This document shows positions 1 to 13,362 of a stretch of 15,119 bases of DNA, piece by piece (position 1 is the stretch's first letter; each line of letters opens with the position of its first letter). This DNA comes from Bdellovibrionia bacterium (GTDB taxonomy: Bacteria > Bdellovibrionota > UBA1018): assembly GCA_045805065.1 (NCBI GenBank), contig JBJMMA010000218.1, positions 1 to 15,119 on the forward strand. The letters are read 5' to 3'. The notes beneath the pieces were generated by a model. The model was not told the origin of the DNA. It saw only the letters and a list, made by a program, of their open reading frames with translations, and did no database searches. A program made the position numbers and the translations under genes.

Positions 1-244
1 TTACCAACTCAGAAGATTCGTTCTTCTTATATTCTATAATTACGGGATTATTTTCTTCAGATAATGCGAGGGTATCTATTCGTCCTGCGTGGTCGGTACC
101 GGTAGAAAATTCCGTAGCCACAAATATGCAATTAAACACGCTTCCTAGGTTCTTTTCTACAAGCGATTGCAATTCCTTCTCGAGATTGAAATTGTGAGCT
201 TTTACTACTTCGAGTTTATCTTGTTTGATTTGGAAGAGTGGCAT
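1..244 (-). CDS. NucS/DUF91-like PD-(D/E)XK endonuclease domain protein, 5' part only (truncated by window edge; this family often carries a C-terminal DUF5655 domain)
   Basis: Not in the ORF track. Manual translation from ATG at 244: MPLFQIKQDKLEVVKAHNFNLEKELQSLVEKNLGSVFNCIFVATEFSTGTDHAGRIDTLALSEENNPVIIEYKKNESSELV..., open to the edge. It has the LEKELQ helix and the GRIDTLA...IIEYK nuclease motif. SD-like GAGGG lies in the 12 nt between the upstream stop (257) and the ATG. Confidence 0.85.
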   Translation of the reverse strand, partial: MPLFQIKQDKLEVVKAHNFNLEKELQSLVEKNLGSVFNCIFVATEFSTGTDHAGRIDTLALSEENNPVIIEYKKNESSELV

Positions 245-256
245 GGGTTTCCCTCA

Positions 257-3200
257 CTATTTAGACCTTCGGAACTCAGGTCTGGCTTTTTCGAGAAGCT
301 CGTAAACCTTACTAACGCCGACCTTCATTTCGATAGTCTGCTTCTCCAGCACGCCTTTCTCGATGGCTATAAGCAAAATCTCGAGTGCCCAGTAGCTTTG
401 TTTGACACTAGGTAGGTTGCCAGCCTGTGCACGTTGCGCAAGTGTATATGACAAGCGCTTTTGGAATGGGGTAAAGATCCCGTTTTGTGATATTTGGAAC
501 CAAGTTTCCGCATCGATCGATTTCGCAGAGTCTACTATTGCGGTATGGAGCGGATTTAAGACTGAGCTCTCAGACTCTGTTAGAATTTGCTCAGTCTGGT
601 TTCCCAGTACTGTTGCTTGAGGTGGGTGGTCTATCTCATCCTTATCGCCGCAATCTATCGCGACTTCTTGGCTACGCGGCATATGCAGGGTGTGAACAGT
701 AGGTGAAGGCGGAGCTAATTCCTTAGATTGCTCGATCCAAGGTGTAATTTGAAGGGACTCTAGCGTTTCCCATAGGCTAGTGAGAGCTCCATCCGGATCT
801 AACCGGAATGAGCTCTCCCTTATTCTCCAGAAACGCCAGTTGCAACGTTCAAGTTCCCGTTGTCGAGCCGCATCTTCCTCATACTTTTCGGGACCGTGCC
901 AGAAATCACCATCGCATTCGACCGCAAGCTGGCCCTTGATGCCTTCGATGATCAAATCAATCCTTCTACCTGCGACTTCATACTGAGGAATAACTCTGAA
1001 TCCCCGATCATGAATTTTGAAAAAAACATCTAACTCAAACCAGCTGTCAAAAGGGGAGGGCGGACTTGCGATCGCACGATCGGAGTTCCTTGCCATGGTT
1101 CGAACCTCTTCGATTGATTTCCCATCAATTACTGTCCGCTGAATTTTGGGATTAAGGAAATACTCGAGAAGTTTGTATCTGTAGCACTTTGGGTTCACAT
1201 CGTTCAATGTTGCAGAGTGGAATAGCCACATCTGCTCTTTAGCTCTGCTCGCAGCGACGTTGAATCGGCGTTCATCTTTGTCTTTGCTCAAAACGCCTAT
1301 TCTGGAGTTATCCGACGGTGCGGAGACCAAACTGAGGAGCATGATGTCACGTTCATCGCCTTGAAAAGCGTATGCGTCACCACATACGAGTTCTCTCTTC
1401 TCAATTTCTTCTGGGCCAATCGTTTCGAGTAGACGCTTCTCAATCTGATTGGCTTGCGTATCTCCCAGTAGGCTTATGATCCCTAAAGTTTTGCCCTCAT
1501 ATGCAGGGTCTTTTACTAATTCCTGAATCTTTGAGACAATCGCTTCTACTTCTGGAGGATTCCAAATCTTACCGCTCGTGCCTTCCTGATAACCACCAGG
1601 AACCTGGATGCTCGCTACAACGGGTTGTAGGCGTCCCGCTCCGAATTGTTTTAATGGAATCAATGGCTCGCTTTGGTAACAAAGGTTGTTAGAGAATTGG
1701 ATTATTTCCGGCATACAGCGGAAATGCTCTCGAAGTCGTATGCGTCCTTTAAACCGGATTTTTGCGAGATCGAAAAAACTATCATCCACTCCAATGTTAT
1801 TAGAAAAAGGTATGTCGTTAATCCATTTCTCACGGAGAGCTTGTATGTCCTCACGATCAAGCATTGATTCAGGGCTAATTTGCTTATCGTCACCAACAAC
1901 TACGATCTTTTTGGCAAGATAATGAAGAAAGAGAGCTTCTGGTCCTGACTGACTAGCTTCGTCGATAATCACTACGTCAAAGCTGTCGGTCCCAGGTTTA
2001 ATCGATTCTGCCACACGTTGAATAGGCATAATCCAAGCCGGAATCGCTCCACGGCATTGTTCCATATGCTCGCGAGCAGCGCGGCGATGCTTGTTGGCAT
2101 ACTTGCCCGTCCCTTTACCAATTTTCCTTACTGCTTGTGACCAAGCAAGTAAGTGTTGGCGACGAAACTCGTTCATTCGTGAAGGTGAAAAACAATGCTC
2201 CCAGGATTTCGCGGCGGCCAGATTTTTGATGATTTCCTGCTCACGCTTTTTTTGGTTATTAAGCGTAATGGAAAGGCTTTGCTGAAGATCTGGATCGTCC
2301 ATTTCATGTAGCCAAGATCTAGCACATGCCCAATTCCAAGCCTCTTCGAAACCGCTGATATTTTCTAACCAATCAGAGGCGTAGCTCTTATTACGTATGC
2401 GAGCTGCAAGATTAGGAGCGGCAGTCTCGAGTTTAGTGAGCAGTTCCTCTTGTTTAGATTTCTTTTTTTTGGACTCAGCTAGTGAAACGATGATTGAGAG
2501 CGATTCATCATATTGACCAGCGTCTCGATTTTTGACAGCAGCCGTAAGAGCTCGATAAACGGGATGAGGTCTCTTTGAAGCGGTTGGCTTTAATGCTTTC
2601 TCGAGAACTAAAAGTTCGAGTTCGAGTTTTTCGTAATTCTCTTCTGCTTCAATAGCCTCAAATGTATCGATAAAAGTATTGATGTCTGAATCGTCTATCC
2701 AATTTGGTTCCAGGCACTTCTTTGCTCGCAGAAGTCTTATCTGCTCGAGGCATTCTAAAAGTGTATCAAGCGGTTCACAAAGATCTTCTAATTCTGCCAC
2801 CTGAAACTTTATATTCCCCGTTAAACTAACATCTAGTTCTTTCCATAGCTCCTGTAGTTTCCGGAGGGTCTCGGTGAGTTCAATCCAAGTAAGAAGTGTT
2901 TCAACAGCGGCGGCTGTTTTACATTCGCGTCCGCCAATACGGACAGATTGAACCAGATACAAAGCTTCTTTAACGACTTTTGCTCGGAATGGACCAAAGC
3001 CAAGACCTTTGCCAAGCGAGAGATGTGTATGTAAAGCTTGCGCGTGTGCTCTTACAACGCTTAGGTCCTTGCCTTCTAGTCCGCTTACTGAACGATCCGA
3101 AAGCTCACCCAAGAGTTTGCGGATCGTTTTAATGCCGGACTTTGTCTCTCTTAGGAGCTCTCTCCAAATTCTATCTCGCTCAGACAAGATTTGAGATCTT

Positions 3201-5167
3201 GCTTTATTTACCCAAGGAAAAGAGTGCTTGCCGATTGAAGTTATGAGATCAGCTATTTTCTGAGTGACATCAAGCAAAGCTACTCTTTGCGTTTTTGAAA
3301 ATTTCTTTAGATCAAAGTAAAGGCGATAGGCACGAAGTTCTGAATGGTTGGCAGCTGTTTGCTTTGCGACTGCCTCTATTTCACACATGCGGGAAAATTC
3401 TTCACATTTTGGAAGATGGTCGGAGGCAGGGATCTCCATACTCAATTGATCTTCAATTTCGTTTGTAAGTGATTCAGAAAGAGAAATTAGGGTGCGAAGG
3501 TCCTTATTTGTGAGCGGAGGACGACAGATCGAACTCGGGTGGTCATCCAGCCAATTGTGTTTGCTTTCCTCTGCTTTAATTTGTTCCGCAATGCGTGCAA
3601 GGGTTCCAGAATACGAGCCGAATTGTAGAGGGTGTTTAAAAGTTTCTGCTTCCCGAAGACTACGAAGTTTTTGTTGGGTGGCTGCTATTTCAGCGCGAAT
3701 CTTTCTTAGGGCTTCTCCGTGAGTACGAATCTCTTTTTGGTTTTGGATCGGATTCCAACAATTATACTTCTCGGTAATCCCTTGAACTGAGTCCTCAAGC
3801 GCTTTCATTCCATTTCCGTCGTCGCCTAATAGGCTGACACAAAGGGCTGAAACCTCTTTTGGAAATTTGTCGCGCAAAACTTTCAGCGCTCGCGGTGTGT
3901 GGCTGGTAACTAAGACGCGGTGACCTGTTGCAAGAAGATGGCAAATCAAATTAGCAATGGTATGCGACTTTCCGGTTCCAGGAGGCCCCTGTACTAACAC
4001 TCCTTGGCGAGCTGAAATGCGTTCCGCAATTTCCTTTTGTTCTTGGTTTGAAACGAGAGGAAAGTATATTTCTTGAGAATCGGATGTACTAGCTTGTTCA
4101 GAATGAGATGAGTCGGGTGCTGCATCGTCGATAATATCCACAAGTCGGGTAACACTGAGCGGTACGTCGCCATCAGATTTGAGCTGCTCAATAATTTCCT
4201 GATACATCCGGAGAAGACTTCGTTCCGTTTGCTTTCGGAGAATAATAGCCGGAGCGTAATGTAAAAGTGGATGTTCAGTGCTGCTTGATTGGGGAGTGAG
4301 TGATCCCTCATAGCGGCTGTCGGAGGAGAGGCTGTTCGTCCAGCTTTTTAATAGAGCTTCGACTGCAGCACCGTCCCATAGCTGCTCTCCAATTTCGTGA
4401 GCCTGTTGCTCAAGAGCTGACCAGACTTTCGCGTCTGGGCGCTTCTGTGGATCTATCATTTCCTGCTCGAGCTCCAGATTGACGCCCTCACCAGTTGGTC
4501 CTATCGTGATGGCGCCTTTGCGGGTATCAAAGCTAATAGTAATTCGAGTTGTTAGAATGTGCCGTCGAATCGAACTTGAAGGAGAGGATCTCCATGTAAG
4601 AAGTCCTAATCCTAAAACCACTTCATAGGCTTCGCCTAGCTTTTGTTGTTTTTGGTAAATTGAAAAGAGGTCTTTGTAGATCGCTTCAACCTTTGCAAGA
4701 CTCTGGTCATCGCTGGCCCATGGCTGCCAGTTCTTTTTTAAATATTTCGTCCAGGCATCTTGGAGCTGGGGTAATTCTGCGAAGTGTTGAATCACTGTTT
4801 CTTCAACTTGTTCTCCGGATGCGTTATCGCCAATCACAGTCTTTGAAACTGTGTCTCTGACCTTGGGCTCCTTCGACGAATCCCTAAGGTCTTTCGCAGT
4901 TACCCATTCTTTCAGCTCCTCGGGGGGAGAGGGAGGTTCCTTACGTTTTGGTTTTTTGATCTCGACCCACTTGTCAGAGGTTTCGTCAGTAGCTGGTCCC
5001 CAAGAGATGCAAAAGCAATCATTCTCGCGGGGGATGTCGCTGAACCATAGGACTTGTTCATAGTCTTTGAGGTCGAGGGTTACCTTTGACTTAAGCTGAG
5101 TAAGCTCTCGAAGGTAGGTGAATAGACGAACGGACTTCTCTCGCACATCTTCTTTAGCGCTGCTCAC
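257..5167 (-). CDS. SF1 helicase (AAA_11/AAA_12, UPF1/DNA2-like) fused to a C-terminal Vsr/DUF559/MTES_1575-like endonuclease
   Basis: 1636 aa. GTG start with GGAGA SD at 5172-5176. Helicase motifs: QGPPGTGKS, LVTSHT, VVIIDEASQ, VVGDDKQI, LREHFRC, AFQGDERD, RRFNVAASRAK. Nuclease region: FDSWFELDV...QYEVAGRRIDLII...LAVECDGDFWHG...DAARQRELERCNWRFWRI. Confidence 0.92.
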   Translation of the reverse strand: MSSAKEDVREKSVRLFTYLRELTQLKSKVTLDLKDYEQVLWFSDIPRENDCFCISWGPATDETSDKWVEIKKPKRKEPPSPPEELKEWVTAKDLRDSSKEPKVRDTVSKTVIGDNASGEQVEETVIQHFAELPQLQDAWTKYLKKNWQPWASDDQSLAKVEAIYKDLFSIYQKQQKLGEAYEVVLGLGLLTWRSSPSSSIRRHILTTRITISFDTRKGAITIGPTGEGVNLELEQEMIDPQKRPDAKVWSALEQQAHEIGEQLWDGAAVEALLKSWTNSLSSDSRYEGSLTPQSSSTEHPLLHYAPAIILRKQTERSLLRMYQEIIEQLKSDGDVPLSVTRLVDIIDDAAPDSSHSEQASTSDSQEIYFPLVSNQEQKEIAERISARQGVLVQGPPGTGKSHTIANLICHLLATGHRVLVTSHTPRALKVLRDKFPKEVSALCVSLLGDDGNGMKALEDSVQGITEKYNCWNPIQNQKEIRTHGEALRKIRAEIAATQQKLRSLREAETFKHPLQFGSYSGTLARIAEQIKAEESKHNWLDDHPSSICRPPLTNKDLRTLISLSESLTNEIEDQLSMEIPASDHLPKCEEFSRMCEIEAVAKQTAANHSELRAYRLYFDLKKFSKTQRVALLDVTQKIADLITSIGKHSFPWVNKARSQILSERDRIWRELLRETKSGIKTIRKLLGELSDRSVSGLEGKDLSVVRAHAQALHTHLSLGKGLGFGPFRAKVVKEALYLVQSVRIGGRECKTAAAVETLLTWIELTETLRKLQELWKELDVSLTGNIKFQVAELEDLCEPLDTLLECLEQIRLLRAKKCLEPNWIDDSDINTFIDTFEAIEAEENYEKLELELLVLEKALKPTASKRPHPVYRALTAAVKNRDAGQYDESLSIIVSLAESKKKKSKQEELLTKLETAAPNLAARIRNKSYASDWLENISGFEEAWNWACARSWLHEMDDPDLQQSLSITLNNQKKREQEIIKNLAAAKSWEHCFSPSRMNEFRRQHLLAWSQAVRKIGKGTGKYANKHRRAAREHMEQCRGAIPAWIMPIQRVAESIKPGTDSFDVVIIDEASQSGPEALFLHYLAKKIVVVGDDKQISPESMLDREDIQALREKWINDIPFSNNIGVDDSFFDLAKIRFKGRIRLREHFRCMPEIIQFSNNLCYQSEPLIPLKQFGAGRLQPVVASIQVPGGYQEGTSGKIWNPPEVEAIVSKIQELVKDPAYEGKTLGIISLLGDTQANQIEKRLLETIGPEEIEKRELVCGDAYAFQGDERDIMLLSLVSAPSDNSRIGVLSKDKDERRFNVAASRAKEQMWLFHSATLNDVNPKCYRYKLLEYFLNPKIQRTVIDGKSIEEVRTMARNSDRAIASPPSPFDSWFELDVFFKIHDRGFRVIPQYEVAGRRIDLIIEGIKGQLAVECDGDFWHGPEKYEEDAARQRELERCNWRFWRIRESSFRLDPDGALTSLWETLESLQITPWIEQSKELAPPSPTVHTLHMPRSQEVAIDCGDKDEIDHPPQATVLGNQTEQILTESESSVLNPLHTAIVDSAKSIDAETWFQISQNGIFTPFQKRLSYTLAQRAQAGNLPSVKQSYWALEILLIAIEKGVLEKQTIEMKVGVSKVYELLEKARPEFRRSK

Positions 5168-5407
5168 GGTTTCTCCGCATGTACATTTGACCCATTTTTA
5201 TCGGCGTAAAACCGGCAAAGCTTGAGGATAAATGCCTGAAATCAGAGAGATATTATAATCCTATTATATTTCGCATATTTAAGTAATCACCCATTCAGTT
5301 GAGAAATCCGGTGCCGTGATTTGAGATTAAGTCACAGCTTTAAGAACGGGGTGGAATAGCGTGCGATCATTAATGGCGGGCTGTTTTGTGACGATATTAC
5401 AAATACT

Positions 5408-5881
5408 ATGATCTTAGAAGCGATCCTCAAATTACTTGGAATAGTCGGAAGCCTCGGTATTTTTTCCGCTGGGATAGGCTACGCTCTTAATTCAGTCTCC
5501 GAACGCCAAAAGACACAGAGAGTTCTTTTTCAAGAATACGCAGTTCGTTACGGAAACATCATAGCAGCTCTACTCAAAAAGGGAGATTTCAAGCGTAGCT
5601 TCACTGCAACTGACGGGGAGGAACGAGAGCTGTGTCTGAAGCTATTTTTTCTTTTTACGGAGGAATTTTATCTCGCTGAGCATGGATACATCCCGCAGGA
5701 CGCGTGGAACACTTGGAAGGCCTCAGTAGAGGATCTTGTCAGGGTCCCATTTTTTCGTGAAGCCTGGGAGTACACCACGAGTCAGTACAAATTTTCACCA
5801 AAATTTAAGATTTGGATAGATACTGCCGCGTTTCGAGTGCAAAAACCTACCCAGCTTATTCGAGACCGAGAGATTGCTTAA
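5408..5881 (+). CDS. Hypothetical protein with N-terminal transmembrane helix and helical cytoplasmic domain (DUF4760/DUF6082-like)
   Basis: 157-aa ORF. Hydrophobic N-terminus (ILEAILKLLGIVGSLGIFSAGIGYAL) and the pattern LFFLFTEEFYLAEHGYIPQDAWNTWK...FFREAW. Family assignment is from memory. No clear SD. Confidence 0.65.
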   Translation: MILEAILKLLGIVGSLGIFSAGIGYALNSVSERQKTQRVLFQEYAVRYGNIIAALLKKGDFKRSFTATDGEERELCLKLFFLFTEEFYLAEHGYIPQDAWNTWKASVEDLVRVPFFREAWEYTTSQYKFSPKFKIWIDTAAFRVQKPTQLIRDREIA

Positions 5882-5920
5882 GAACGGGTATCGGATATTG
5901 GTGAAATACGGAATCACGAT

Positions 5921-5944
5921 TGCTGTTTCTTTTTCGAAACAGCA
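5921..5944. terminator. Stem-loop between convergent genes, possible bidirectional terminator
   Basis: TGCTGTTTC-tttttc-GAAACAGCA, a perfect 9-bp stem. No strong U-tract on either side. Confidence 0.5.
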
Positions 5945-5999
5945 GCCTTCGGAATTACAAATAGTTCGCTTAGTCTCCCTCAGTATCGCAAGTCAGTTC

Positions 6000-6326
6000 T
6001 TAGTCGTGCTGTGACTTCCAAGAAAGAGGAAGCCACTTGTGTCGCGGCTTAAAGTCCCAAGGAATGATGTCAGAGTTGTGTCTGGATTCAACCAGACTTG
6101 TTGTAAATGCGCCTTCTTCCACGTGCGACTTTAATTCAACTCCAGTCGGAGCAGGAGCTGGAAACTGTACTTTGGCACTTTCAAGTCGAGCGCGGTCTAG
6201 GAGCATGTTAATAAAATCGGAGATGCTATTGCCTTGAAGACGAGTTTGCTCATCGACCCATGATTTGTTCTCAGGGCGAACATGCGCGTATAGTACCTCA
6301 GAATAGCCTTTATTCGGCCTTGGCAT
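6000..6326 (-). CDS. Ribbon-helix-helix (CopG/MetJ-like) DNA-binding protein
   Basis: Start revised from 6437 to ATG at 6326, which has a perfect GGAGG SD at 6333-6337. 108 aa. MPRPNKGYSEVLYAHVRPENKSWVDEQTRLQGNSISDFINMLLDRAR fits the strand-helix-G.S.S..I..LL RHH pattern. Confidence 0.7.
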   Translation of the reverse strand: MPRPNKGYSEVLYAHVRPENKSWVDEQTRLQGNSISDFINMLLDRARLESAKVQFPAPAPTGVELKSHVEEGAFTTSLVESRHNSDIIPWDFKPRHKWLPLSWKSQHD

Positions 6327-6409
6327 TGGAAACCTCCATAAATTGAAACCGGCTGGTATCATGCGGACGGCTTCGGAGCAAGTTAGGCAACGAATATGAG
6401 GTAATTGCA

Positions 6410-6459
6410 AATCAACGCTCAATTGGTTGATTGACACGTTTCTAGCCCAGAAATATCAA
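6410..6459 (+). promoter_or_regulatory. Candidate sigma70 promoter with an overlapping inverted repeat
   Basis: TTGACA (6431-6436), 17-nt spacer, TATCAA (6454-6459). Inverted repeat AATCAAC-N9-GTTGATT at 6410-6432 overlaps the -35 box. Confidence 0.4.
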
Positions 6460-6531
6460 GAGGATAGGCATTCTTCTATTTTTTAAACAACATCACTTAA
6501 CTCCCGGGAGCACCTGACCGAAACGTAAGAC

Positions 6532-8007
6532 ATGCGTTTTAGGGTCAGTTCGGCGACAGTATGTGCCGTCATCATGTTATTGCTTCCAGGCCAAAAGGCG
6601 TTTGGGACGGTTCTTCAATTGGCCCAAGGGGATGGCGCTGGTCTTGATTCGTCCGTTGCGATTGTGGATTCGGCTGGAAAAGATGGCGAAGAAGTCTATC
6701 GCATGGATGAAGGCGAGTTGATTGAAGGCGCCAAAGAGGATCCAAAACATCCGGGCTGGTATTCGCTTCAAGGCAAAGACCGAAACGGCAAGCCTCATAC
6801 TTTCTGGTTCAAGAAGAGTAAAAACCTCAATTCGGTTGATCCTGGCAAAGTTCAAATCGGCCTGGACGTTGAAGGAGCGGTGACGCTCACAAGAAAGCCC
6901 GGCTTGAGTTGGAGCACTGCAAAGGCTTCGGATAAGGTGGGATGGCCCGTCGCTCAGGACAAACTTAAATATCTGGATTCGGAACTGGTGGAGATGGAAG
7001 ATCCCATCACTCACGAGATTCGCTGGCAGCTGTTTTACAAAGTGAAATTTACTCACAAGTCCAAGAAGTCTGCCGCCGACGTGACGGAAGGTGAAGGCTG
7101 GGTAAACGCCGATTACATCCGTAACGACATTGTCCGAAATGATGAAGAAGATCAGCTTGGGCAGCTTATCAAAAAGCTCGACAAGAAAGATGATCCAAAG
7201 TGCGCACCAGATCGGAAACATACGGCGCCTCACGCAAAAGCCGTGGTTGAGGCCAAGGAGGCTTTGCAGCCTTTGGCCGAAGAGGAAATCGTAGAGCGGA
7301 TCTCGCCTCATTTGGGTAAGTGCTTGCTGGATGACTCCCTCAATGTTCCGGAGCTTGGTAAAGGAACTTCGGCTTTTGACTCCACCGTTCTGAAACATTG
7401 GAAGGAAGCCTCGACTCCAAAAGACATCCCAAGCCCTTTGAGCGGGAAACTTACAAAATCAGACCTGGTGAATATCGATACCTTTGCTCGCACGATCTAC
7501 GGTGAGATGGCTAGCTGCTTTGACAACGGTTTGCAATACCCGATGGCCATGGCGAAAGTCGTCAGCAATCGAGTCGAGTACATCCAAAAGCATGAGGGCG
7601 AGGCCACGCCTTTCGCCCCAGAATCGATCCGCGATAAACTCAAGGGGAGCTTCAGCGCTGTTCTGACTCATCCTTATCAATTTTCAGTCTGGAACAAAAA
7701 GATTGACGGTAAGACCAACCCAAGCCTGAAACAAGTGCTCTGTCCTCCGCGCGATCCGGAAGCCAAGTTCTGGCCTAAAGTGAAGCCTTCCAAAAAAGAG
7801 AGCGGTATCTGGAAAGAAAGCATCCGGATTGCGATTGAAGCCGTGTTGTTTCCTGAGAAATTCAGAAAGAAAACTGAGCACGTCAATGAGCTTTATTACA
7901 CGTCAGGCCTTGGATACTTCATGCAAGGATTTCAACGTGCCTATCATGCGGTCATGGGGAAACCCGTCAGTCGCGGACGTTGCATCGAGCTTTGGAGAAA
8001 GAAATGA
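6532..8007 (+). CDS. Secreted cell-wall hydrolase (Hydrolase_2/SleB-like lytic transglycosylase) with N-terminal SH3-like regions
   Basis: 491 aa. Signal-peptide-like N-terminus. SH3b-like segments (HPGWYSLQ; FYKVKF...EGWVNADYI). Catalytic-domain motifs DTFARTIYGE, AMAKVVSNRV, VLTHPYQFSVWN and LYY. Confidence 0.8.
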   Translation: MRFRVSSATVCAVIMLLLPGQKAFGTVLQLAQGDGAGLDSSVAIVDSAGKDGEEVYRMDEGELIEGAKEDPKHPGWYSLQGKDRNGKPHTFWFKKSKNLNSVDPGKVQIGLDVEGAVTLTRKPGLSWSTAKASDKVGWPVAQDKLKYLDSELVEMEDPITHEIRWQLFYKVKFTHKSKKSAADVTEGEGWVNADYIRNDIVRNDEEDQLGQLIKKLDKKDDPKCAPDRKHTAPHAKAVVEAKEALQPLAEEEIVERISPHLGKCLLDDSLNVPELGKGTSAFDSTVLKHWKEASTPKDIPSPLSGKLTKSDLVNIDTFARTIYGEMASCFDNGLQYPMAMAKVVSNRVEYIQKHEGEATPFAPESIRDKLKGSFSAVLTHPYQFSVWNKKIDGKTNPSLKQVLCPPRDPEAKFWPKVKPSKKESGIWKESIRIAIEAVLFPEKFRKKTEHVNELYYTSGLGYFMQGFQRAYHAVMGKPVSRGRCIELWRKK

Positions 8008-8477
8008 ATTACTGCACAAAACCGCTCTTGGTACTTCTCGGTTGCAGTCTGCTCCAGAGCGCTCCAGTCTTTGCGAAGACATCTTGTGAGGCTGCTTATC
8101 AAGTGAAGGAAGATGTAGCCTACCTCGAGATTGGAAAGGCAAAGCCCGTCGCGCTTCCAGAGCCGGGTCCTGGTCAAAAATGCGAAAAGATCTGGGCTGA
8201 TCCACATTCCAAATATGTGATCGCTCAGGTTGAGACGGGTGCCTTGGGAACCCAGGTTCTTGTTCAACACACCTATCTGCTTGTCTATGAAGTCGCAAAA
8301 GGTGCGCTCAAGGAGCTCAAGAGAATCGAGCTTAAAAGCACCGAGAGAAGCTCAAAAGGGACACATACGCTGAAAGACTGCGAGGCCATCGTGCCTGAGC
8401 TTAAGTCCAAGGCTAGATTTGAGATCCAGCTCAAGTGTCAGGGGAGTGCATCCATCGAAGCTGTTCAAATTCCTTAG
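8004..8477 (+). CDS. Small secreted hypothetical protein, translationally coupled to the hydrolase
   Basis: Start revised to ATG 8004, which overlaps the hydrolase stop (ATGA 8004-8007). GGAGA SD at 7994-7998. Signal peptide MNYCTKPLLVLLGCSLLQSAPVFA. Four Cys in the mature part. 157 aa. Confidence 0.75.
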   Translation: MNYCTKPLLVLLGCSLLQSAPVFAKTSCEAAYQVKEDVAYLEIGKAKPVALPEPGPGQKCEKIWADPHSKYVIAQVETGALGTQVLVQHTYLLVYEVAKGALKELKRIELKSTERSSKGTHTLKDCEAIVPELKSKARFEIQLKCQGSASIEAVQIP

Positions 8478-8515
8478 CCACCTGTATATAAACCCATACA
8501 AGAAGGAATTCTTTT

Positions 8516-10735
8516 ATGGCGGATATGTCGGTGACTGGAGTTGAGACCTCGGAAGCAGATTTGCACAAGCCGTTTATTGCGGACGGTCAGACGGTTCCGG
8601 AGCTTTCGATCGTTCCCATCCTGATGGGCGTGGTGCTGGGGATTGTATTCGGCGCATCGTCTCTTTATCTCGCTCTTAAAGTCGGCATGACGGTGAGTGC
8701 TTCCATTCCGGTGGCTGTGCTTTCGATCACTCTCTTTCGCGGGATCTCTAAAGTCTTTGGCCTCCGGAAGGCGACAATTCTTGAGAACAACATCGTCCAG
8801 ACGACGGGTTCGGCGGGTGAGTCCATCGCGTTTGGCGCGGCCGTCACCATGCCGGCGCTGCTCATCTTGGGTTATGAGATGGAGCTGACGCGGATCATGC
8901 TGGTGGCGGTCCTGGGTGGGCTTCTTGGCGTGCTCATGATGATTCCACTGCGCTACGCGCTCATTGTGAAAGAGCAAAAAGAACTCACTTACCCTGAAGG
9001 CACGGCCTGCGCAGAAGTGCTGATTGTGGGCGAAAAAGGCGGCACGAGCGCCAAGACTGTCTTTACGGGATTTTTTCTGGGTCTGGGCTACAAGATCTTG
9101 AACGCAGGAATGAAACTTTGGGCCGAAGTCCCGGAGAAAGCACTCTCGTTTTTCAAAGGCGCAACGATTGCTTCTGAAGTCTCTCCTGAGCTTTTGGGGG
9201 TAGGCTACATCATCGGACCGCGCATTGCATGCATCATGGTTGCGGGTGGAATTCTCTCAAGCTGGGTGCTCATTCCGGCAATCATGCTCTTTGGCGGAGG
9301 TCTTGCTTCGCCGCTTTTCCCGGCGACAAAGCTCATCTCAAGCATGTCTCCGCATGATGTCTGGAGAAACTACGTTCTTTATATCGGCGCAGGTGCCGTG
9401 GCTGCAGGTGGAATGGTGAGCCTGGCTCAAAGCTTGCCGACTATCATCCGGGGCGCAATGGACGGGCTGAAAAATCTCAAGTCTGCGGGCGGCAGCGTGA
9501 AGAGCAACGTGCGCACGCAAAAAGATCTGCCGCTGTTGTATGTGGTGTTGGGCTCACTGGCACTCATTCTGATCATTACGTTCACGCCTTCGCTGCACAT
9601 GAATCTGGGCGGAGCCATTTTGATTGTGGCGTTTGGCTTTTTGTTTGTGACGGTGAGCTCGCGCCTCACTGGCCAGATCGGATCGTCATCGAACCCGATC
9701 TCAGGCATGACGGTCGCGACGCTGCTTTTGACGAGCCTGATCTTTCTTGCGATGGGTTGGGTGGGAGTTGAGTACCGGGTTACCGCGCTCAGCGTGGCGG
9801 CGATTGTTTGTGTTGCGGCCTCGAATGCCGGCACGACTTCACAGGATCTTAAGACGGGCTATCTTGTGGGCGCCACTCCGCGCTCCCAGCAGATTGCGCT
9901 GTTGATTGGTGCGCTTACTTCAGCGCTTGTGATTGGCTACACGCTTGAGGCGCTCAATAACGCTTCGACCATTTATTCAAAGAAGAACCTTCCTGCTGAA
10001 GCCGTCGTGCAGAACGTGAGCTCGCTCAGGGAAATGCAGAAGGTGATGGGACCTGAAAGCGCGAAGGATCAGACGCTCTATCACGTCTTCCGTCTTTCGG
10101 AGACGCCATCGAGCGGACCGCTCTCGCAGCTTCAACCAGGAAAGTACCTGGTCGATGATGCAGGTAAGATCCAGTACCTGGTTGATCCAGGCATCAACGG
10201 GACTTTGAATGTCCGTGATGATGGATCTCCAGTGCAAAAGTACGAGGCCCCGAAAGCTCGCCTCATGTCCCTCATCATTGACGGCATCCTGACTCAGAAA
10301 CTTCCGTGGGGACTTGTGCTCCTGGGCGTTGCAATCGCAATCGTTCTTGAGCTTTGCGGAATCGCCTCACTCCCGTTTGCTGTGGGTGTTTATCTCCCGC
10401 TCTCGAGCTCTGCGCCGATTTTCTTTGGCGGACTCGTGCGCTGGATCGTGGACCGCCGCCTCCGGCAGCATAGTGAAAAGATGGGAATCACGATGGACGA
10501 AGCCGATACCGAGTCGAGCCCCGGTGTGCTCTTCTCCTCGGGCCTCATCGCCGGTGGCGCGATTGCGGGCATTGGCCTTGCGATCTTGCTCGTCAAAGAA
10601 GGCTGGGGTCAGCTTCTTGACTTTGGCACCAAGCTCGGTCTGGCCGAAAGCAACGTCGCTGCTTCGATCGCGTTCTTTGTGATGATGGCGGCGCTTTGCT
10701 TTGTCGGCTTGAGCGGCGAGAAGTCAAAGAAGTAA
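8516..10735 (+). CDS. Oligopeptide transporter, OPT family
   Basis: 739 aa, polytopic. OPT motifs YLALKVGMTVSASIPVAV, ENNIVQTTGSAGES, YPEGTACAEVL, GSSSNPISGMT, SQDLKTGYLVGATPRSQQ, LPFAVGVYLPLS and SSGLIAG. AAGGA SD upstream. Confidence 0.96.
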   Translation: MADMSVTGVETSEADLHKPFIADGQTVPELSIVPILMGVVLGIVFGASSLYLALKVGMTVSASIPVAVLSITLFRGISKVFGLRKATILENNIVQTTGSAGESIAFGAAVTMPALLILGYEMELTRIMLVAVLGGLLGVLMMIPLRYALIVKEQKELTYPEGTACAEVLIVGEKGGTSAKTVFTGFFLGLGYKILNAGMKLWAEVPEKALSFFKGATIASEVSPELLGVGYIIGPRIACIMVAGGILSSWVLIPAIMLFGGGLASPLFPATKLISSMSPHDVWRNYVLYIGAGAVAAGGMVSLAQSLPTIIRGAMDGLKNLKSAGGSVKSNVRTQKDLPLLYVVLGSLALILIITFTPSLHMNLGGAILIVAFGFLFVTVSSRLTGQIGSSSNPISGMTVATLLLTSLIFLAMGWVGVEYRVTALSVAAIVCVAASNAGTTSQDLKTGYLVGATPRSQQIALLIGALTSALVIGYTLEALNNASTIYSKKNLPAEAVVQNVSSLREMQKVMGPESAKDQTLYHVFRLSETPSSGPLSQLQPGKYLVDDAGKIQYLVDPGINGTLNVRDDGSPVQKYEAPKARLMSLIIDGILTQKLPWGLVLLGVAIAIVLELCGIASLPFAVGVYLPLSSSAPIFFGGLVRWIVDRRLRQHSEKMGITMDEADTESSPGVLFSSGLIAGGAIAGIGLAILLVKEGWGQLLDFGTKLGLAESNVAASIAFFVMMAALCFVGLSGEKSKK

Positions 10736-10953
10736 GGCGCCCGACAGATGAAAAAGTTTTAATCCCGTTTTCACGGCATTTTAAGGATCGGCCCCCATAA
10801 TGGGGTTAAGAATAACGCGGGCTGGAATTGACAATTTAAAGTCCAAACCCAGTTATTTTTATATAGGCAATGGGGCCTATAAAAACACGAAACCTACTCT
10901 TATTCACCCTTGCCCCTTGAGGTGTTGGCAAGGCCACAGAAGGGAGGACTAGT

Positions 10954-11115
10954 ATGCTGACTGATAACCGTTTTATCCAGATCGCTTATCCACTCGTTAT
11001 TTTCTTCTCACTCTTACTCGCTTGGAATTCAGCGGGACAGGTCAACGGATTCGATCAGACCGCTTCGACCGGAGCACTGCATAAATTCGTACCGCCTGTT
11101 CTACCTGACACCTGA
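10954..11115 (+). CDS. Small single-pass membrane or secreted peptide, 53 aa
   Basis: Below the ORF-track cut-off. Strong SD GGGAGG (10942-10947), then MLTDNRFIQIAYPLVIFFSLLLAWNSAGQVNGFDQTASTGALHKFVPPVLPDT*. One hydrophobic helix. Confidence 0.65.
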   Translation: MLTDNRFIQIAYPLVIFFSLLLAWNSAGQVNGFDQTASTGALHKFVPPVLPDT

Positions 11116-11159
11116 GCTTTCTCGAAGAGAGATCCTGCAAAGAATGAAAGGGGGAAATC

Positions 11160-11498
11160 ATGAATAATCAATTCCACTTCAAAAACTTTGAACCGGATTT
11201 TCAACTCCGCCTCCAGGCCAATGTGGTTCTAAATCGAACCCTCGACATTGCTCCGTACGGAGCAGTGGCCATAGGGCTATTAGAGAAGCGTGACGAGAAT
11301 GACTATTGCTGCGCGCTCGACATCTATTCCAAGCAAGGGCCATTCATGGCCAGTGCAGTTGGGGCGGATCCAGAAAGTGCACTGCATTGCCTGGAGGAAA
11401 AAATTAGAAGGCAGATTTCGTGGTGGAAGTCTCATCGTAGGGACGGTCCTGTTCCGCCAAGTATCGTCACAGGGCACCCGGCCGTTGTGACATCTTGA
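11160..11498 (+). CDS. HPF/RaiA-like (ribosome hibernation factor fold) protein, divergent
   Basis: 112 aa. AAGGGGG SD. The beta-alpha-beta-beta-beta-alpha pattern (QFHFKNFEPD...YCCALDI...FMASAVGADPESALHCLEEKIRRQI) resembles the HPF consensus I...N.E......D.Y.AID....KL.RQL. Confidence 0.55.
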   Translation: MNNQFHFKNFEPDFQLRLQANVVLNRTLDIAPYGAVAIGLLEKRDENDYCCALDIYSKQGPFMASAVGADPESALHCLEEKIRRQISWWKSHRRDGPVPPSIVTGHPAVVTS

Positions 11499-11562
11499 CA
11501 GAATGAAATCTGAAACCATTTTTGAACCCAAGGCAGTTAACAAAAAGAAAGGAGAAACCACT

Positions 11563-12108
11563 ATGAATACGAACAACGGATTAACGGTATGGGCAGAAAA
11601 CTGGCCAGAAAACTGGAAAAACACATGGAGTCCGATTTCGGATCTTCGTCGTGAGTTTGATCGTCTTTTTGACGACTGGACAACCTCAACCCCACGTGGA
11701 TTAAGAACGGATTACGCCTTTGTTCCGGCCTGCGATGTGGAAGAAGATGAAAACCATTTTCTTCTGATTCTAGAGATGGCTGGAATGAAGAAGGACGATA
11801 TAAAACTCGAAATTAACGACGGCCAGCTGATGATTTCCGGTGAGCGCCACCAGGAAAGCAGACAGAAGGGAGAAGGACGCCGGTACTCCGAGCGGAAGTT
11901 TGGAAAGTTTCAACGGCGCTTTGTCCTGCCTGCTGGGATTGATGCGAGCCGAGTTGAGGCCAGCTACGAAGACGGCATTTTGCGGATCATGGTCCCGAAA
12001 GCTGAAAGCTCCAAACCACGCCAGATTAAGATCGGCAGTGGTAGCACGGGTTTCTTTGGGGAGCTGTATCCACCGAGCGACCACCGAAAAGAAAAAGTCG
12101 CTTCATGA
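11563..12108 (+). CDS. Small heat-shock protein, Hsp20/alpha-crystallin family
   Basis: Start revised to ATG 11563 (AAGGAG SD at 11549-11554). Motifs LRREFDRLFDD, PACDVEE, ISGER, ERKFGKFQRRFVLP, ASYEDGILRIMVPK and the C-terminal IXI motif (RQIKI). Confidence 0.95.
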   Translation: MNTNNGLTVWAENWPENWKNTWSPISDLRREFDRLFDDWTTSTPRGLRTDYAFVPACDVEEDENHFLLILEMAGMKKDDIKLEINDGQLMISGERHQESRQKGEGRRYSERKFGKFQRRFVLPAGIDASRVEASYEDGILRIMVPKAESSKPRQIKIGSGSTGFFGELYPPSDHRKEKVAS

Positions 12109-12114
12109 TTGATT

Positions 12115-12154
12115 GAAGCCCCTGTTTCTCTGCTGAGATCGGGGGCTTCTTTTT
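12115..12154 (+). terminator. Rho-independent terminator
   Basis: GAAGCCCCTG..TCTC-tgct-GAGA.CGGGGGCTTC followed by TTTTT, starting 7 nt after the Hsp20 stop. Confidence 0.85.
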
Positions 12155-12183
12155 AGTTCGGTATCCGCAATGAGGAGAGACTT

Positions 12184-12756
12184 GTGAAAATCCTGACGTC
12201 GAAAGCGTTTGTCGGATTGGTATGCTTTCTTGTTGGAGCAGCGGCAGTTTTAACTGCGCAGAGATTTGCTACTGAACGACACAAAGATTTGAAGTTTTCC
12301 AAGGGAAAGCTTCAATTTAAAAACGGCGCACTCGTCAATATGGATTCGGTATTTGACGAATTCTATAACGATGATTTCTTTAACCGAGCTGATGATCCTT
12401 TTGAGCAGATGAGGCAAATGCGAAATCGACTAACGGAAGATTTTCATGAGGCCAATCTTGGGAGCGGAGATGTCGGCGAAATCAAAAGGCGGGAGGATAA
12501 AGATTTTGTTTACTATGACATTGGCATCAAAGGCATTGATAAGAAGAATCTTAATTTCAAGATCGTCGATCGTCAGATCAGTATTTCAGGCCAGGTAGAA
12601 AACAAGTCGGAAGAAAACGGAACTGGGACCTACTTCAGTTCCAGTTTTCATAGATCGTTTCCCGTCCCCTCGTATGTTGATGGGAAACGAGTTCAGGTCG
12701 AACAAGATAAGGATAGGGTCACTCTGAAGTTTCCAAGGTTATCTACAGCGGGCTGA
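12184..12756 (+). CDS. Hsp20/alpha-crystallin domain protein with N-terminal signal peptide or membrane anchor
   Basis: GTG start with GAGGAG SD. Hydrophobic N-terminus AFVGLVCFLVGAAAVLTA. DPFEQMRQM segment. C-terminal alpha-crystallin pattern (IKGIDKKNLNFKI...ISISGQ...SFHRSFPVPSYVD...VTLKFPR). Confidence 0.85.
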   Translation: MKILTSKAFVGLVCFLVGAAAVLTAQRFATERHKDLKFSKGKLQFKNGALVNMDSVFDEFYNDDFFNRADDPFEQMRQMRNRLTEDFHEANLGSGDVGEIKRREDKDFVYYDIGIKGIDKKNLNFKIVDRQISISGQVENKSEENGTGTYFSSSFHRSFPVPSYVDGKRVQVEQDKDRVTLKFPRLSTAG

Positions 12757-12770
12757 CTGTGGAAAAGAGT

Positions 12771-12814
12771 GGACTCATTTGAAGGACCCGATGACCTTCA
12801 AACTGAGCCTTTTT
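12771..12814 (+). terminator. Probable Rho-independent terminator
   Basis: GG-a-CTCA-TTTGAAGG-N9-CCTTCAAA-c-TGAG-CC followed by TTTTT, 15 nt after the stop at 12756. Confidence 0.65.
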
Positions 12815-12870
12815 GCGGTCCGTGCCGGCCTCCCTTGCTAATCTCAGTATTCTCACGTATTTCGAAAAAG

Positions 12871-13362
12871 ATGAAAAAGCTCGCAAAGCTAACTCTTTTT
12901 GGGGTCCTGGCGGTACAAACGGCATCAGGTTTTTGTGCAGGGCCATTTACGGGATCATGGAAAGGCAAAGGCCAGGCTATTATGAAGCCTGGTACACCTC
13001 AGGAAAAAACGAGAAAGTGTTCTGAAATCACTTTTCAGTTTGTTCAAGACGCTGCGCAGTTTCATCTGATTTCGGGTCACTACCTTTGTGAAGATCTGGA
13101 TGCGAACTACGGATCAGCCGATTTTGATGTCCGAGGCGGAGCGCTCATTTATAAGGGCCAGGCGATCGGCACGATCTCCAATCAAAAAGTGATTCTGAAT
13201 ATCCCAGATGCAGAGGACGGAACGGTTTTTCACCTGATGCTGACTTCTCATGCGGGTTCGTTGGATTATGTTGAGCAATGGTTCCAAAAAGGAAATCGAG
13301 TCAGTGCACCAGATGTCCTTTTGCTCCAAGTCCAGGGGGCGCTCACTCGGACGCGTGAGTAA
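12871..13362 (+). CDS. Secreted hypothetical protein, beta-rich
   Basis: Start revised to ATG 12871 because the upstream extension spans a terminator hairpin. Signal peptide MKKLAKLTLFGVLAVQTASGFCA. FTGSWKGKG start of the mature domain and a Cys pair suggest a small beta-barrel. Confidence 0.7.
   Translation: MKKLAKLTLFGVLAVQTASGFCAGPFTGSWKGKGQAIMKPGTPQEKTRKCSEITFQFVQDAAQFHLISGHYLCEDLDANYGSADFDVRGGALIYKGQAIGTISNQKVILNIPDAEDGTVFHLMLTSHAGSLDYVEQWFQKGNRVSAPDVLLLQVQGALTRTRE

Follow-up and report, generated by a model that had tools for sequence, protein, structure and literature searches.

Two nuclease genes lie tightly packed on the minus strand at the left end of a contig from a Bdellovibrionia bacterium (JBJMMA010000218.1, assembly GCA_045805065.1; the window is the whole stretch analysed, 15,119 nucleotides), and the question they raise is whether they form one dedicated two-gene anti-phage system or are two defence genes that merely lie side by side. 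Gene 1 encodes a giant helicase-nuclease related to Hhe, which is reportedly a single-gene system from Gao and colleagues (2020). Gene 2, which runs off the left edge of the window, matches PDC-S18, a computational candidate single-gene system in PADLOC. An earlier note, made from the sequence alone, proposed that the two genes are coupled. We think it probable, if well short of certain, that they are two autonomous single-gene candidate anti-phage nucleases arranged head to tail in a small defence islet, neither with a dedicated partner, and the best reading of their juxtaposition is that defence genes gather in islands. The features at the junction are as follows.

257..5167, minus strand: gene 1, Hhe-like helicase-nuclease of 1636 aa; GTG start at 5167, TAG stop at 259-257
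245..256, minus strand: 12-nt spacer between gene 1 and gene 2; GAGGG ribosome-binding site at nt 251-255, read directly from the sequence
1..244 (open reading frame listed as 2..244), minus strand: gene 2, first 81 codons, PDC-S18; ATG at 244-242, open at the left window edge

The earlier note had described this junction as a 1636-aa helicase-nuclease ending at 257 with a second gene starting 12 nt on behind its own Shine-Dalgarno sequence, and direct reading agrees: GAGGG (255-251) lies 6 nt 5' of the gene 2 ATG (244-242) and gives gene 2 its own ribosome-binding site. A consensus scan found no terminator-like site between the two genes. Given the shared strand, the 12-nt gap and the lack of a terminator, an operon fits, and the two genes are probably co-transcribed here.

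The family of gene 1 is large enough to ask whether the pairing recurs. A word-indexed protein search with gene 1 gave 3777 matches at E<=0.001 among 7999 scored candidates, and in GTDB species genomes at least 576 of 600 pattern matches for the helicase family were confirmed. The best 80 helicase loci, which are 37-53% identical to gene 1, come from many bacterial phyla and from archaea (ANME-2, Aenigmatarchaeota); the flank of the helicase reaches 1 kb or more on the downstream side in 64 of them and on the upstream side in 61. A DUF5655 relative of gene 2 was found in none of the 80, either by tblastn or with a hidden Markov model (HMM) of 14 full-length DUF5655 proteins (E<=1). With the gene 2 fragment, tblastn against the same loci gave four matches, all at E>=4, and with protein P0124 none at E<=1. 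One match (E 4.9), upstream of the helicase in locus L001, was considered as a gene 2 relative and rejected, the open reading frame (ORF) there being ParB-like with an hhalign probability of 1.1%.

Nor does the helicase keep any other conserved neighbour. When 488 ORFs of at least 80 aa, lying within five genes on either side in 78 loci, were clustered, no related group had more than four members (L075 and L080 were left out because the helicase is no single ORF there). A same-strand ORF of at least 100 aa lies within 50 nt downstream of the helicase in 14 of 72 loci, and those close downstream ORFs that PADLOC models identify all differ (for example PglZ, a DrmD-like protein and an MkoA-like helicase). 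Close packing with differing genes is thus typical for this helicase family, and the 12-nt gap is no evidence of partnership.

Seen from the other side, the relatives of gene 2 keep different company. PDC-S18 relatives matched 43 plasmid records, and we viewed eight contexts, seven of them annotated. In three of the eight, from one Cupriavidus and two Acinetobacter plasmids, PDC-S18 lies inside a type I restriction-modification (R-M) operon in the order M-S-[DUF5655]-R.

L083:3790-11033, type I operon with PDC-S18 between hsdS and hsdR
L087:4232-10817, type I operon with PDC-S18 between hsdS and hsdR
L088:4164-10820, type I operon with PDC-S18 between hsdS and hsdR

A further copy lies beside hsdMSR (Rhizobium) and another beside restriction, helix-turn-helix and methylase genes (Saccharobesus); in the Staphylococcus and Streptomyces contexts no R-M gene adjoins it, and one record is unannotated. 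The expectation in the earlier note that DUF5655 genes occur near restriction loci is therefore borne out, since in five of the eight contexts they lie in or beside them. An SF1-Vsr helicase (superfamily 1, SF1) stands next to PDC-S18 in none of the seven annotated contexts, and no helicase fusion of a DUF5655 protein turned up among the fused forms longer than 545 aa, a search that is itself weak evidence. The test of linkage suggested in the note, whether homologues keep the pairing, thus came out negative for both genes (0/80 helicase loci, 0/7 annotated plasmid contexts), and with no recurrent neighbour, no helicase fusion and varied tight neighbours the idea of one coupled two-gene system did not hold.

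What each gene is likely to do on its own begins, for gene 1, with its domains.

4118..5167, minus strand: N-terminal domain, aa 1-350; conserved in the family, without a Pfam match or a resembling solved fold
3596..4048, minus strand: first part of helicase domain 1A, aa 374-524; Pfam AAA_11, AAA_30, AAA_19
nt 3965-3988, minus strand: Walker A motif GPPGTGKS, aa 394-401; invariant in 24 sequences
2048..3595, minus strand: insertion of ~520 aa splitting the helicase core, aa 525-1040; gap between Pfam helicase matches
1148..2047, minus strand: rest of the helicase core, aa 1041-1340; Pfam AAA_12 at 1141-1316
nt 1949-1963, minus strand: motif II DEASQ, aa 1069-1073; invariant in 24 sequences
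761..1039, minus strand: Vsr-fold nuclease MTES_1575, aa 1377-1469; Pfam PF18741, E 3.7e-26
260..760, minus strand: C-terminal tail, aa 1470-1636; no Pfam match

The predicted domains show gene 1 to encode an SF1B (Upf1/Sen1-like) motor, split by a large insertion and followed by a C-terminal Vsr-fold nuclease. The earlier note had already named an SF1 helicase with a Vsr-like nuclease, and both the Pfam matches and the colinearity with Hhe described below bear this out. The insertion is bounded by the N-terminal part of AAA_11 (374-524) and by the Viral_helicase1 and AAA_12 matches that start from 1057. PDB sequence matches of gene 1 are limited to SF1B helicases (Sen1, IGHMBP2, DNA2 and Upf1; E 9e-11 to ~1e-5). 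An alignment of 24 homologues shows no variation at D1404, E1417, C1418 and D1419 of the nuclease, and since these, the Walker A motif and motif II are all present, the protein looks catalytically competent as far as its residues can tell. MTES_1575 is described as a novel Vsr-fold restriction-type nuclease (REase), fused in conflict systems to an SF-I helicase and a winged-helix domain (DUF3320) (Anantharaman et al. 2013, PMC3710099).

Among the matches listed from the protein search, 119 relatives of gene 1 are 1412-1845 aa long and 42-58% identical, mostly with ~90% query coverage. PF18741 is present in 119 of the 120 proteins among the matches listed, and DUF4011 (PF13195) and DUF5655 in none of them. 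The C-terminal tail is common to a minority only of the matches listed, coverage of 97-100% being reached there only by P0004-P0006, P0037, P0041, P0043, P0045, P0066 and P0088. Some relatives of gene 1 lie on plasmids. On the Deinococcus actinosclerus plasmid CP029776.1, at 61236-66763 (H26), the copy of the helicase gene is split by an IS701-family transposase.

Hhe is the known system closest in plan. We used the references NCBIfam NF042953 and PADLOC PDLC02194 and compared gene 1 with the Klebsiella plasmid copy, WP_031944115.1, in which Pfam places DUF4011 at 30-308, a Walker A segment at ~430-490, the C-terminal part of AAA_11 at 1378-1420, AAA_12 at 1455-1637 and MTES_1575 at 1683-1780. 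Both are stand-alone genes, and both have, in the same order, an N-terminal domain (~300 aa), an SF1 Walker A motif, a very long insertion, the rest of the helicase, MTES_1575 and a tail. By hhalign the C-terminal half of the helicase and the nuclease align over 450 columns (99.9% probability, E 5e-32, 32% identity), and the gene 1 nuclease domain aligns to the IECDG segment of Hhe. Gene 1 thus shares with Hhe an SF1 core with intact Walker A and motif II, as well as a Vsr-fold nuclease with its acidic residues. The differences are substantial, however: where NF042953 asks for 2000 bits as its equivalog cut-off, gene 1 reaches 143.9, over residues 1043-1477 only; tblastn aligns residues 1043-1508 only, at 28% identity; DUF4011 is found by Pfam in Hhe but is undetected in the N-termini of the gene 1 family; and the insertion is ~520 aa in gene 1 against ~850 aa in Hhe (between Hhe residues ~490 and ~1378). 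Hhe is reported to be active against lambda, T3, T7 and PhiV-1 (10.1101/2022.06.16.496414, citing Gao et al.), and a change of a glutamate to alanine in its Vsr domain is reported in the same preprint to abolish defence. The mutated glutamate would correspond, by alignment, to E1417 of gene 1, the numbering differing between Hhe proteins.

Other curated models score better than Hhe, though they too match gene 1 in part. The two best-scoring are PDC-S37 of PADLOC and ProA (NCBIfam NF058533). The PDC-S37 match (residues 364-1553, E 4.6e-53, 178.5 bits) spans helicase, insertion and nuclease, but covers ~73% of protein and model, leaves the N-terminus outside and is low in bits for a protein of this length. 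The ProA match (residues 339-1497, E 2e-55) reaches 188 bits against a cut-off of 1500, with the N-terminal 340-360 residues uncovered. Three other members of the gene 1 family likewise reach ~180-190 bits to PDC-S37, suggesting that this is a sister family of PDC-S37, ProA and Hhe and not a member of any of them. In the literature searched we found no published description of ProA or PDC-S37. The C-terminal half of the SF1 helicase also matches Mokosh MkoA and MkoC (E 5e-38 and 1.4e-34), but here the match is the helicase core alone, with the Vsr nuclease outside it and the N-terminal domain not shared. The best-matching curated models of both genes in the window (ProA, Hhe, PDC-S37 and PDC-S18) are all anti-phage, those of gene 1 being weak or partial matches.

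The N-terminal domain is where gene 1 departs most from these models. For its analysis we aligned 62 loci with the window (A3, 63 sequences), leaving out six loci in which the segment is broken by in-frame stops. Modelled by AlphaFold2 from this alignment, residues 1-370 have a predicted local distance difference test score (pLDDT) of 92.4 and a predicted template modelling score (pTM) of 0.84. A Foldseek search of the PDB with this model gave no match at E<=0.001, the best TM-score (template modelling score) of ~0.1 being noise. The earlier note could not recognise DUF4011 in gene 1, and neither can Pfam: it gives no match to the domain in the window protein at E<=0.01 or in any of 63 family N-termini at E<=1, and the positive control, Klebsiella Hhe, was matched at E 1.6e-37. 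A language-model look-alike search of the Atlas gave DUF4011 clusters at 0.87, a score too low to be taken as anything but a lead. Aligned to Hhe by hhalign, A3 gave a weak match of 58 columns (45% probability, E 2.2e-4) within the DUF4011 domain of Hhe (30-308). Perhaps the N-terminal domain of gene 1 is DUF4011-like but has diverged very far.

The genes that surround gene 1 homologues point to defence. Up to two genes away from the helicase there are 156 complete ORFs with a length of 110 aa or more, of which 142 were scanned and 14 fell outside the size limit. Matches to a PADLOC model were found for 40 of the 142 at E<=1e-5 and for 25, spread over 20 of 60 loci, at E<=1e-20. Among these 25 are PglZ with a BrxHI-like ORF, DrmD, restriction enzymes of types I and IV, ZacA, a CBASS cyclase and PsyrT, and further ZorD/DpdE, RT_UG14, PD-Lambda-2_B and a number of PDC candidates. 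Farther out, at gene positions 4-5, 15 of 140 scanned ORFs (of 146) match PADLOC at E<=1e-20. The two closest of the 80 loci carry mobile-element genes, ParB and RepL/AbiEi in L001 and RES-Xre and a serine recombinase in L017. These counts support residence in defence islands without proving it. In one Bacillota metagenome-assembled genome (L009:7316-15266), a BrxHI-like ORF (7316-7972) and PglZ (13254-15266) flank the helicase homologue (7980-13229), all three on one strand, and the homologue is thus embedded in a BREX-like operon.

Gene 2 is known from its first 81 residues, in which the catalytic residues are intact.

E45 at nt 110-112, D57 at 74-76, E71 at 32-34 and K73 at 26-28, minus strand: catalytic residues of gene 2, the last two in the E71-Y72-K73 motif

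Among PADLOC models, PDC-S18 matches residues 2-80 of the fragment at E 3.6e-30, and PDC-S11 matches it at E 1.9e-10; Pfam and NCBIfam gave no match to it, and a PDB sequence search none at E<=1. A protein search limited to longer proteins found 1559 relatives. Among the matches listed, 120 of these are 68-77% identical over all 81 residues, which shows gene 2 to be a real gene and no chance ORF, and most of the 120 have a length of ~311 aa and include PF18899 (DUF5655). Aligned with its family (A2, 35 members), gene 2 keeps 34 of 34 invariant columns within reach, including E45, D57, E71 and K73, so that the E...D...EYK motif which the earlier note judged intact (E45, D57, E71-Y72-K73) indeed falls in invariant columns. 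Full-length relatives, 73-77% identical to the fragment, match PDC-S18 end to end (E 1e-110 to 1e-149). One of them, P0125 (77% identical to the fragment), matches PF18899 at E 2.3e-12.

In a model of P0125 (pLDDT 79.5), residues 1-160 form the nuclease domain, and a disordered linker (163-193) leads from it to a C-terminal domain. Its best matches in the PDB are the NucS/EndoMS structures 2vld, 5gke and 5gkj (E 4e-5 to 7e-4), followed by SfsA, Shedu SduA and Card1. The fold match and PF18899 in the relatives uphold the description of gene 2 as NucS-like with DUF5655, and with defence-type relatives and contexts for both families the assignment of both genes to defence in the earlier note stands as well. 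As a homodimer P0125 is predicted with a score of 0.60 (best control 0.01), a mark reached by 20 of 30 proteins solved as one-chain pairs but by 1 of 23 whose structures are single chains; 53% or more of the contacts agree between runs, the partner pLDDT is at least 77, and the interface comprises residues 1-14, 27-36 and 151-158. Because NucS dimers are already solved, this result may reflect likeness to them and is no proof of a dimer. An Atlas search with the DUF5655 domain gave unnamed clusters only, with scores <=0.84, and its function thus stays a matter of inference; PHROGs were uninformative for PDC-S18. The sole PDC-S18 fusion longer than 545 aa is P0243, a 716-aa RHS-repeat protein that covers 42% of P0125 at 66% identity, and it suggests that the nuclease part of PDC-S18 can serve as the tip of a polymorphic toxin.

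Of the systems to which gene 2 can be compared, PDC-S18 is the one it matches along its whole available length, in the nuclease part of the model and with the PD-(D/E)XK residues present, although gene 2 is known here from 81 of ~311 residues and the DUF5655 half would follow from its relatives. No experimental test of PDC-S18 was found in the literature searched. PDC-S11 has been tested: renamed Madara, it is reported to be a NucS-like nuclease with an EVE-like C-terminal domain, which restricts T4 with modified cytosine and spares unmodified T4, is inactive as D63A, adjoins BREX and reportedly complements it (bioRxiv 10.64898/2026.09.05.749240). Madara shares with the gene 2 family an N-terminal NucS-like PD-(D/E)XK nuclease, a linker and a C-terminal putative sensor domain, and like gene 2 it is a single gene beside another defence system. 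In contrast, full-length gene 2 relatives match PDC-S11 in their first ~80-100 residues and no farther, the C-terminal domain is EVE-like in Madara and DUF5655 in these relatives, and specificity for modified DNA, reported for Madara, would extend to PDC-S18 by analogy. NucS/EndoMS is the best structural match of the P0125 nuclease domain (~131 aligned columns), likewise with a predicted dimer, but at TM-scores of 0.23-0.37 and without a sequence-level match (0 PDB sequence hits at E<=1). The nuclease domain of NucS is C-terminal. In the gene 2 family, by contrast, it is N-terminal, and its context is defence or mobile elements, not repair.

The rest of the window adds little to the islet. Codon third-position G+C content (GC3) is 0.42 in gene 1 and 0.38 in gene 2, and 0.38-0.44 in the genes of 1-6437, as against 0.55-0.65 in the ORF at 6532-8007 and the OPT gene beyond it. 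Since GC3 is also ~0.45 in other genes farther right, the composition is a mild hint only that the genes in 1-6437 may be of foreign origin. The ORFs at 5408-5881, 6000-6437, 6532-8007 and 7980-8477 have no match in Pfam, PADLOC, NCBIfam or PHROGs, so the islet cannot be extended rightward, and no tRNA gene was found as an island border. The ORF at 6532-8007 encodes 491 aa with a hydrophobic, signal-peptide-like N-terminus, and its 3' end overlaps the ORF at 7980-8477 by 28 nt. Farther right are an OPT oligopeptide transporter gene (8516-10735; Pfam E 2e-94, GC3 0.65), tandem HSP20/alpha-crystallin genes at 11503-12108 and 12184-12756, the second a weak Pfam HSP20 match (E 2.2e-5), and, also right of 8477 by Pfam, a GNAT acetyltransferase gene.

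The rival explanations differ in how much they make of the junction. What the earlier note had in view is a defence system of two genes that need each other and share a transcript, perhaps one found in this lineage alone. The common strand, the 12-nt gap, the ribosome-binding site of gene 2 and the missing terminator are as this account would have them, both genes are low in GC3, and the C-terminal tail of gene 1, shared by a minority among the matches listed, could in principle be an adaptor. That tail is also present, however, in L001 (50% identity, match to residue 1601), where there is no DUF5655 gene. With the pairing missing from all 80 loci, PDC-S18 found with other partners or alone in 7 of 7 annotated plasmid contexts, an RHS protein and no helicase as the sole fused form above 545 aa, and tight tandem spacing with unrelated genes common in the helicase family (14/72 loci), we consider an obligate pair distinctly unlikely. 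Non-obligate cooperation asks for less: PDC-S18 would be an accessory or back-up effector of ATP-driven translocase-nucleases, HsdR elsewhere and the SF1-Vsr protein here. PDC-S18 does lie directly upstream of HsdR, in its operon, in three of the eight plasmid contexts, in the window gene 2 lies directly downstream of another motor-nuclease, and Madara (PDC-S11) is reported to complement BREX. Clustering in islands explains insertion into type I R-M operons equally well, however, two plasmid copies of PDC-S18 have no motor-nuclease nearby and none of the 80 helicase loci has PDC-S18, so that such cooperation also seems unlikely to us. It would be more surprising still if the genes served housekeeping DNA repair, with Vsr-type and NucS-type nucleases and a helicase acting on host mismatches or replication intermediates. 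Vsr and NucS/EndoMS are repair enzymes, the gene 2 relative resembles NucS/EndoMS in fold, and the helicase core resembles Sen1, Upf1 and DNA2; but the neighbourhoods of gene 1 homologues are variable, non-syntenic and rich in defence and mobile-element genes, both families have members on plasmids, every one of the best-matching curated models is anti-phage, and NucS is not matched at the level of sequence.

Several points also weigh against our own preference for two autonomous genes. An operon at this junction leaves room for cooperation in this lineage. The closest relatives of gene 1 (58% and 50% identity; metagenome assemblies) lie outside the 80 loci. The near and far PADLOC counts, 25/142 against 15/140, differ modestly and have no proper or genome-wide control, and some of the matches are generic (RmuC, UvrD-like, WYL). 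With 81 of ~311 residues in the window, the DUF5655 domain of gene 2 is deduced from its relatives. On the other side of the helicase, the genes at 5408-8477 carry no defence signature in the four libraries. Lastly, in the literature searched we found no phage test of members of either family closer than Hhe or Madara.

Under the reading of two autonomous nucleases, gene 1 would sense either a phage factor or some feature of invading DNA through its N-terminal domain and its insertion; the ATP-driven motor would then translocate along the DNA for the Vsr-fold domain to nick or cut, so that the phage genome would be destroyed or the infection aborted. For gene 2, by analogy with Madara and with the position in type I R-M operons, DUF5655 may read a DNA feature such as a base modification, after which the dimeric nuclease would cut, a type IV-like restriction covering phages that escape other defences. 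A bolder proposal, to which we would give a slim chance, is that PDC-S18 nucleases, instead of working as stand-alone restriction enzymes, are auxiliary effectors of an adjoining ATP-driven motor-nuclease (HsdR in type I R-M operons, the Hhe-like SF1-Vsr protein here) and that the N-terminal fold of gene 1 is a new sensor domain. On that proposal PDC-S18 might, for instance, cut where the motor is stalled by a DNA structure or by modified DNA, and the window would be a new pairing.

If our preferred reading of two independent nucleases is right, there is little here that is new in kind: the islet would consist of an Hhe-like motor-nuclease and a catalogued candidate, PDC-S18. For the helicase family it carries a caution, as a 12-nt gap and a shared strand are no evidence of a dedicated system. 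The gene 1 family is very large, spans phyla and lies below the curated Hhe and ProA thresholds, and the point of value in it is a confidently modelled N-terminal domain of 350 residues without a solved structural relative. PDC-S18 recurs within operons of type I R-M systems, and its sister Madara has recently been validated; on both counts it is a good candidate type IV-like enzyme, with DUF5655 as a new sensor.

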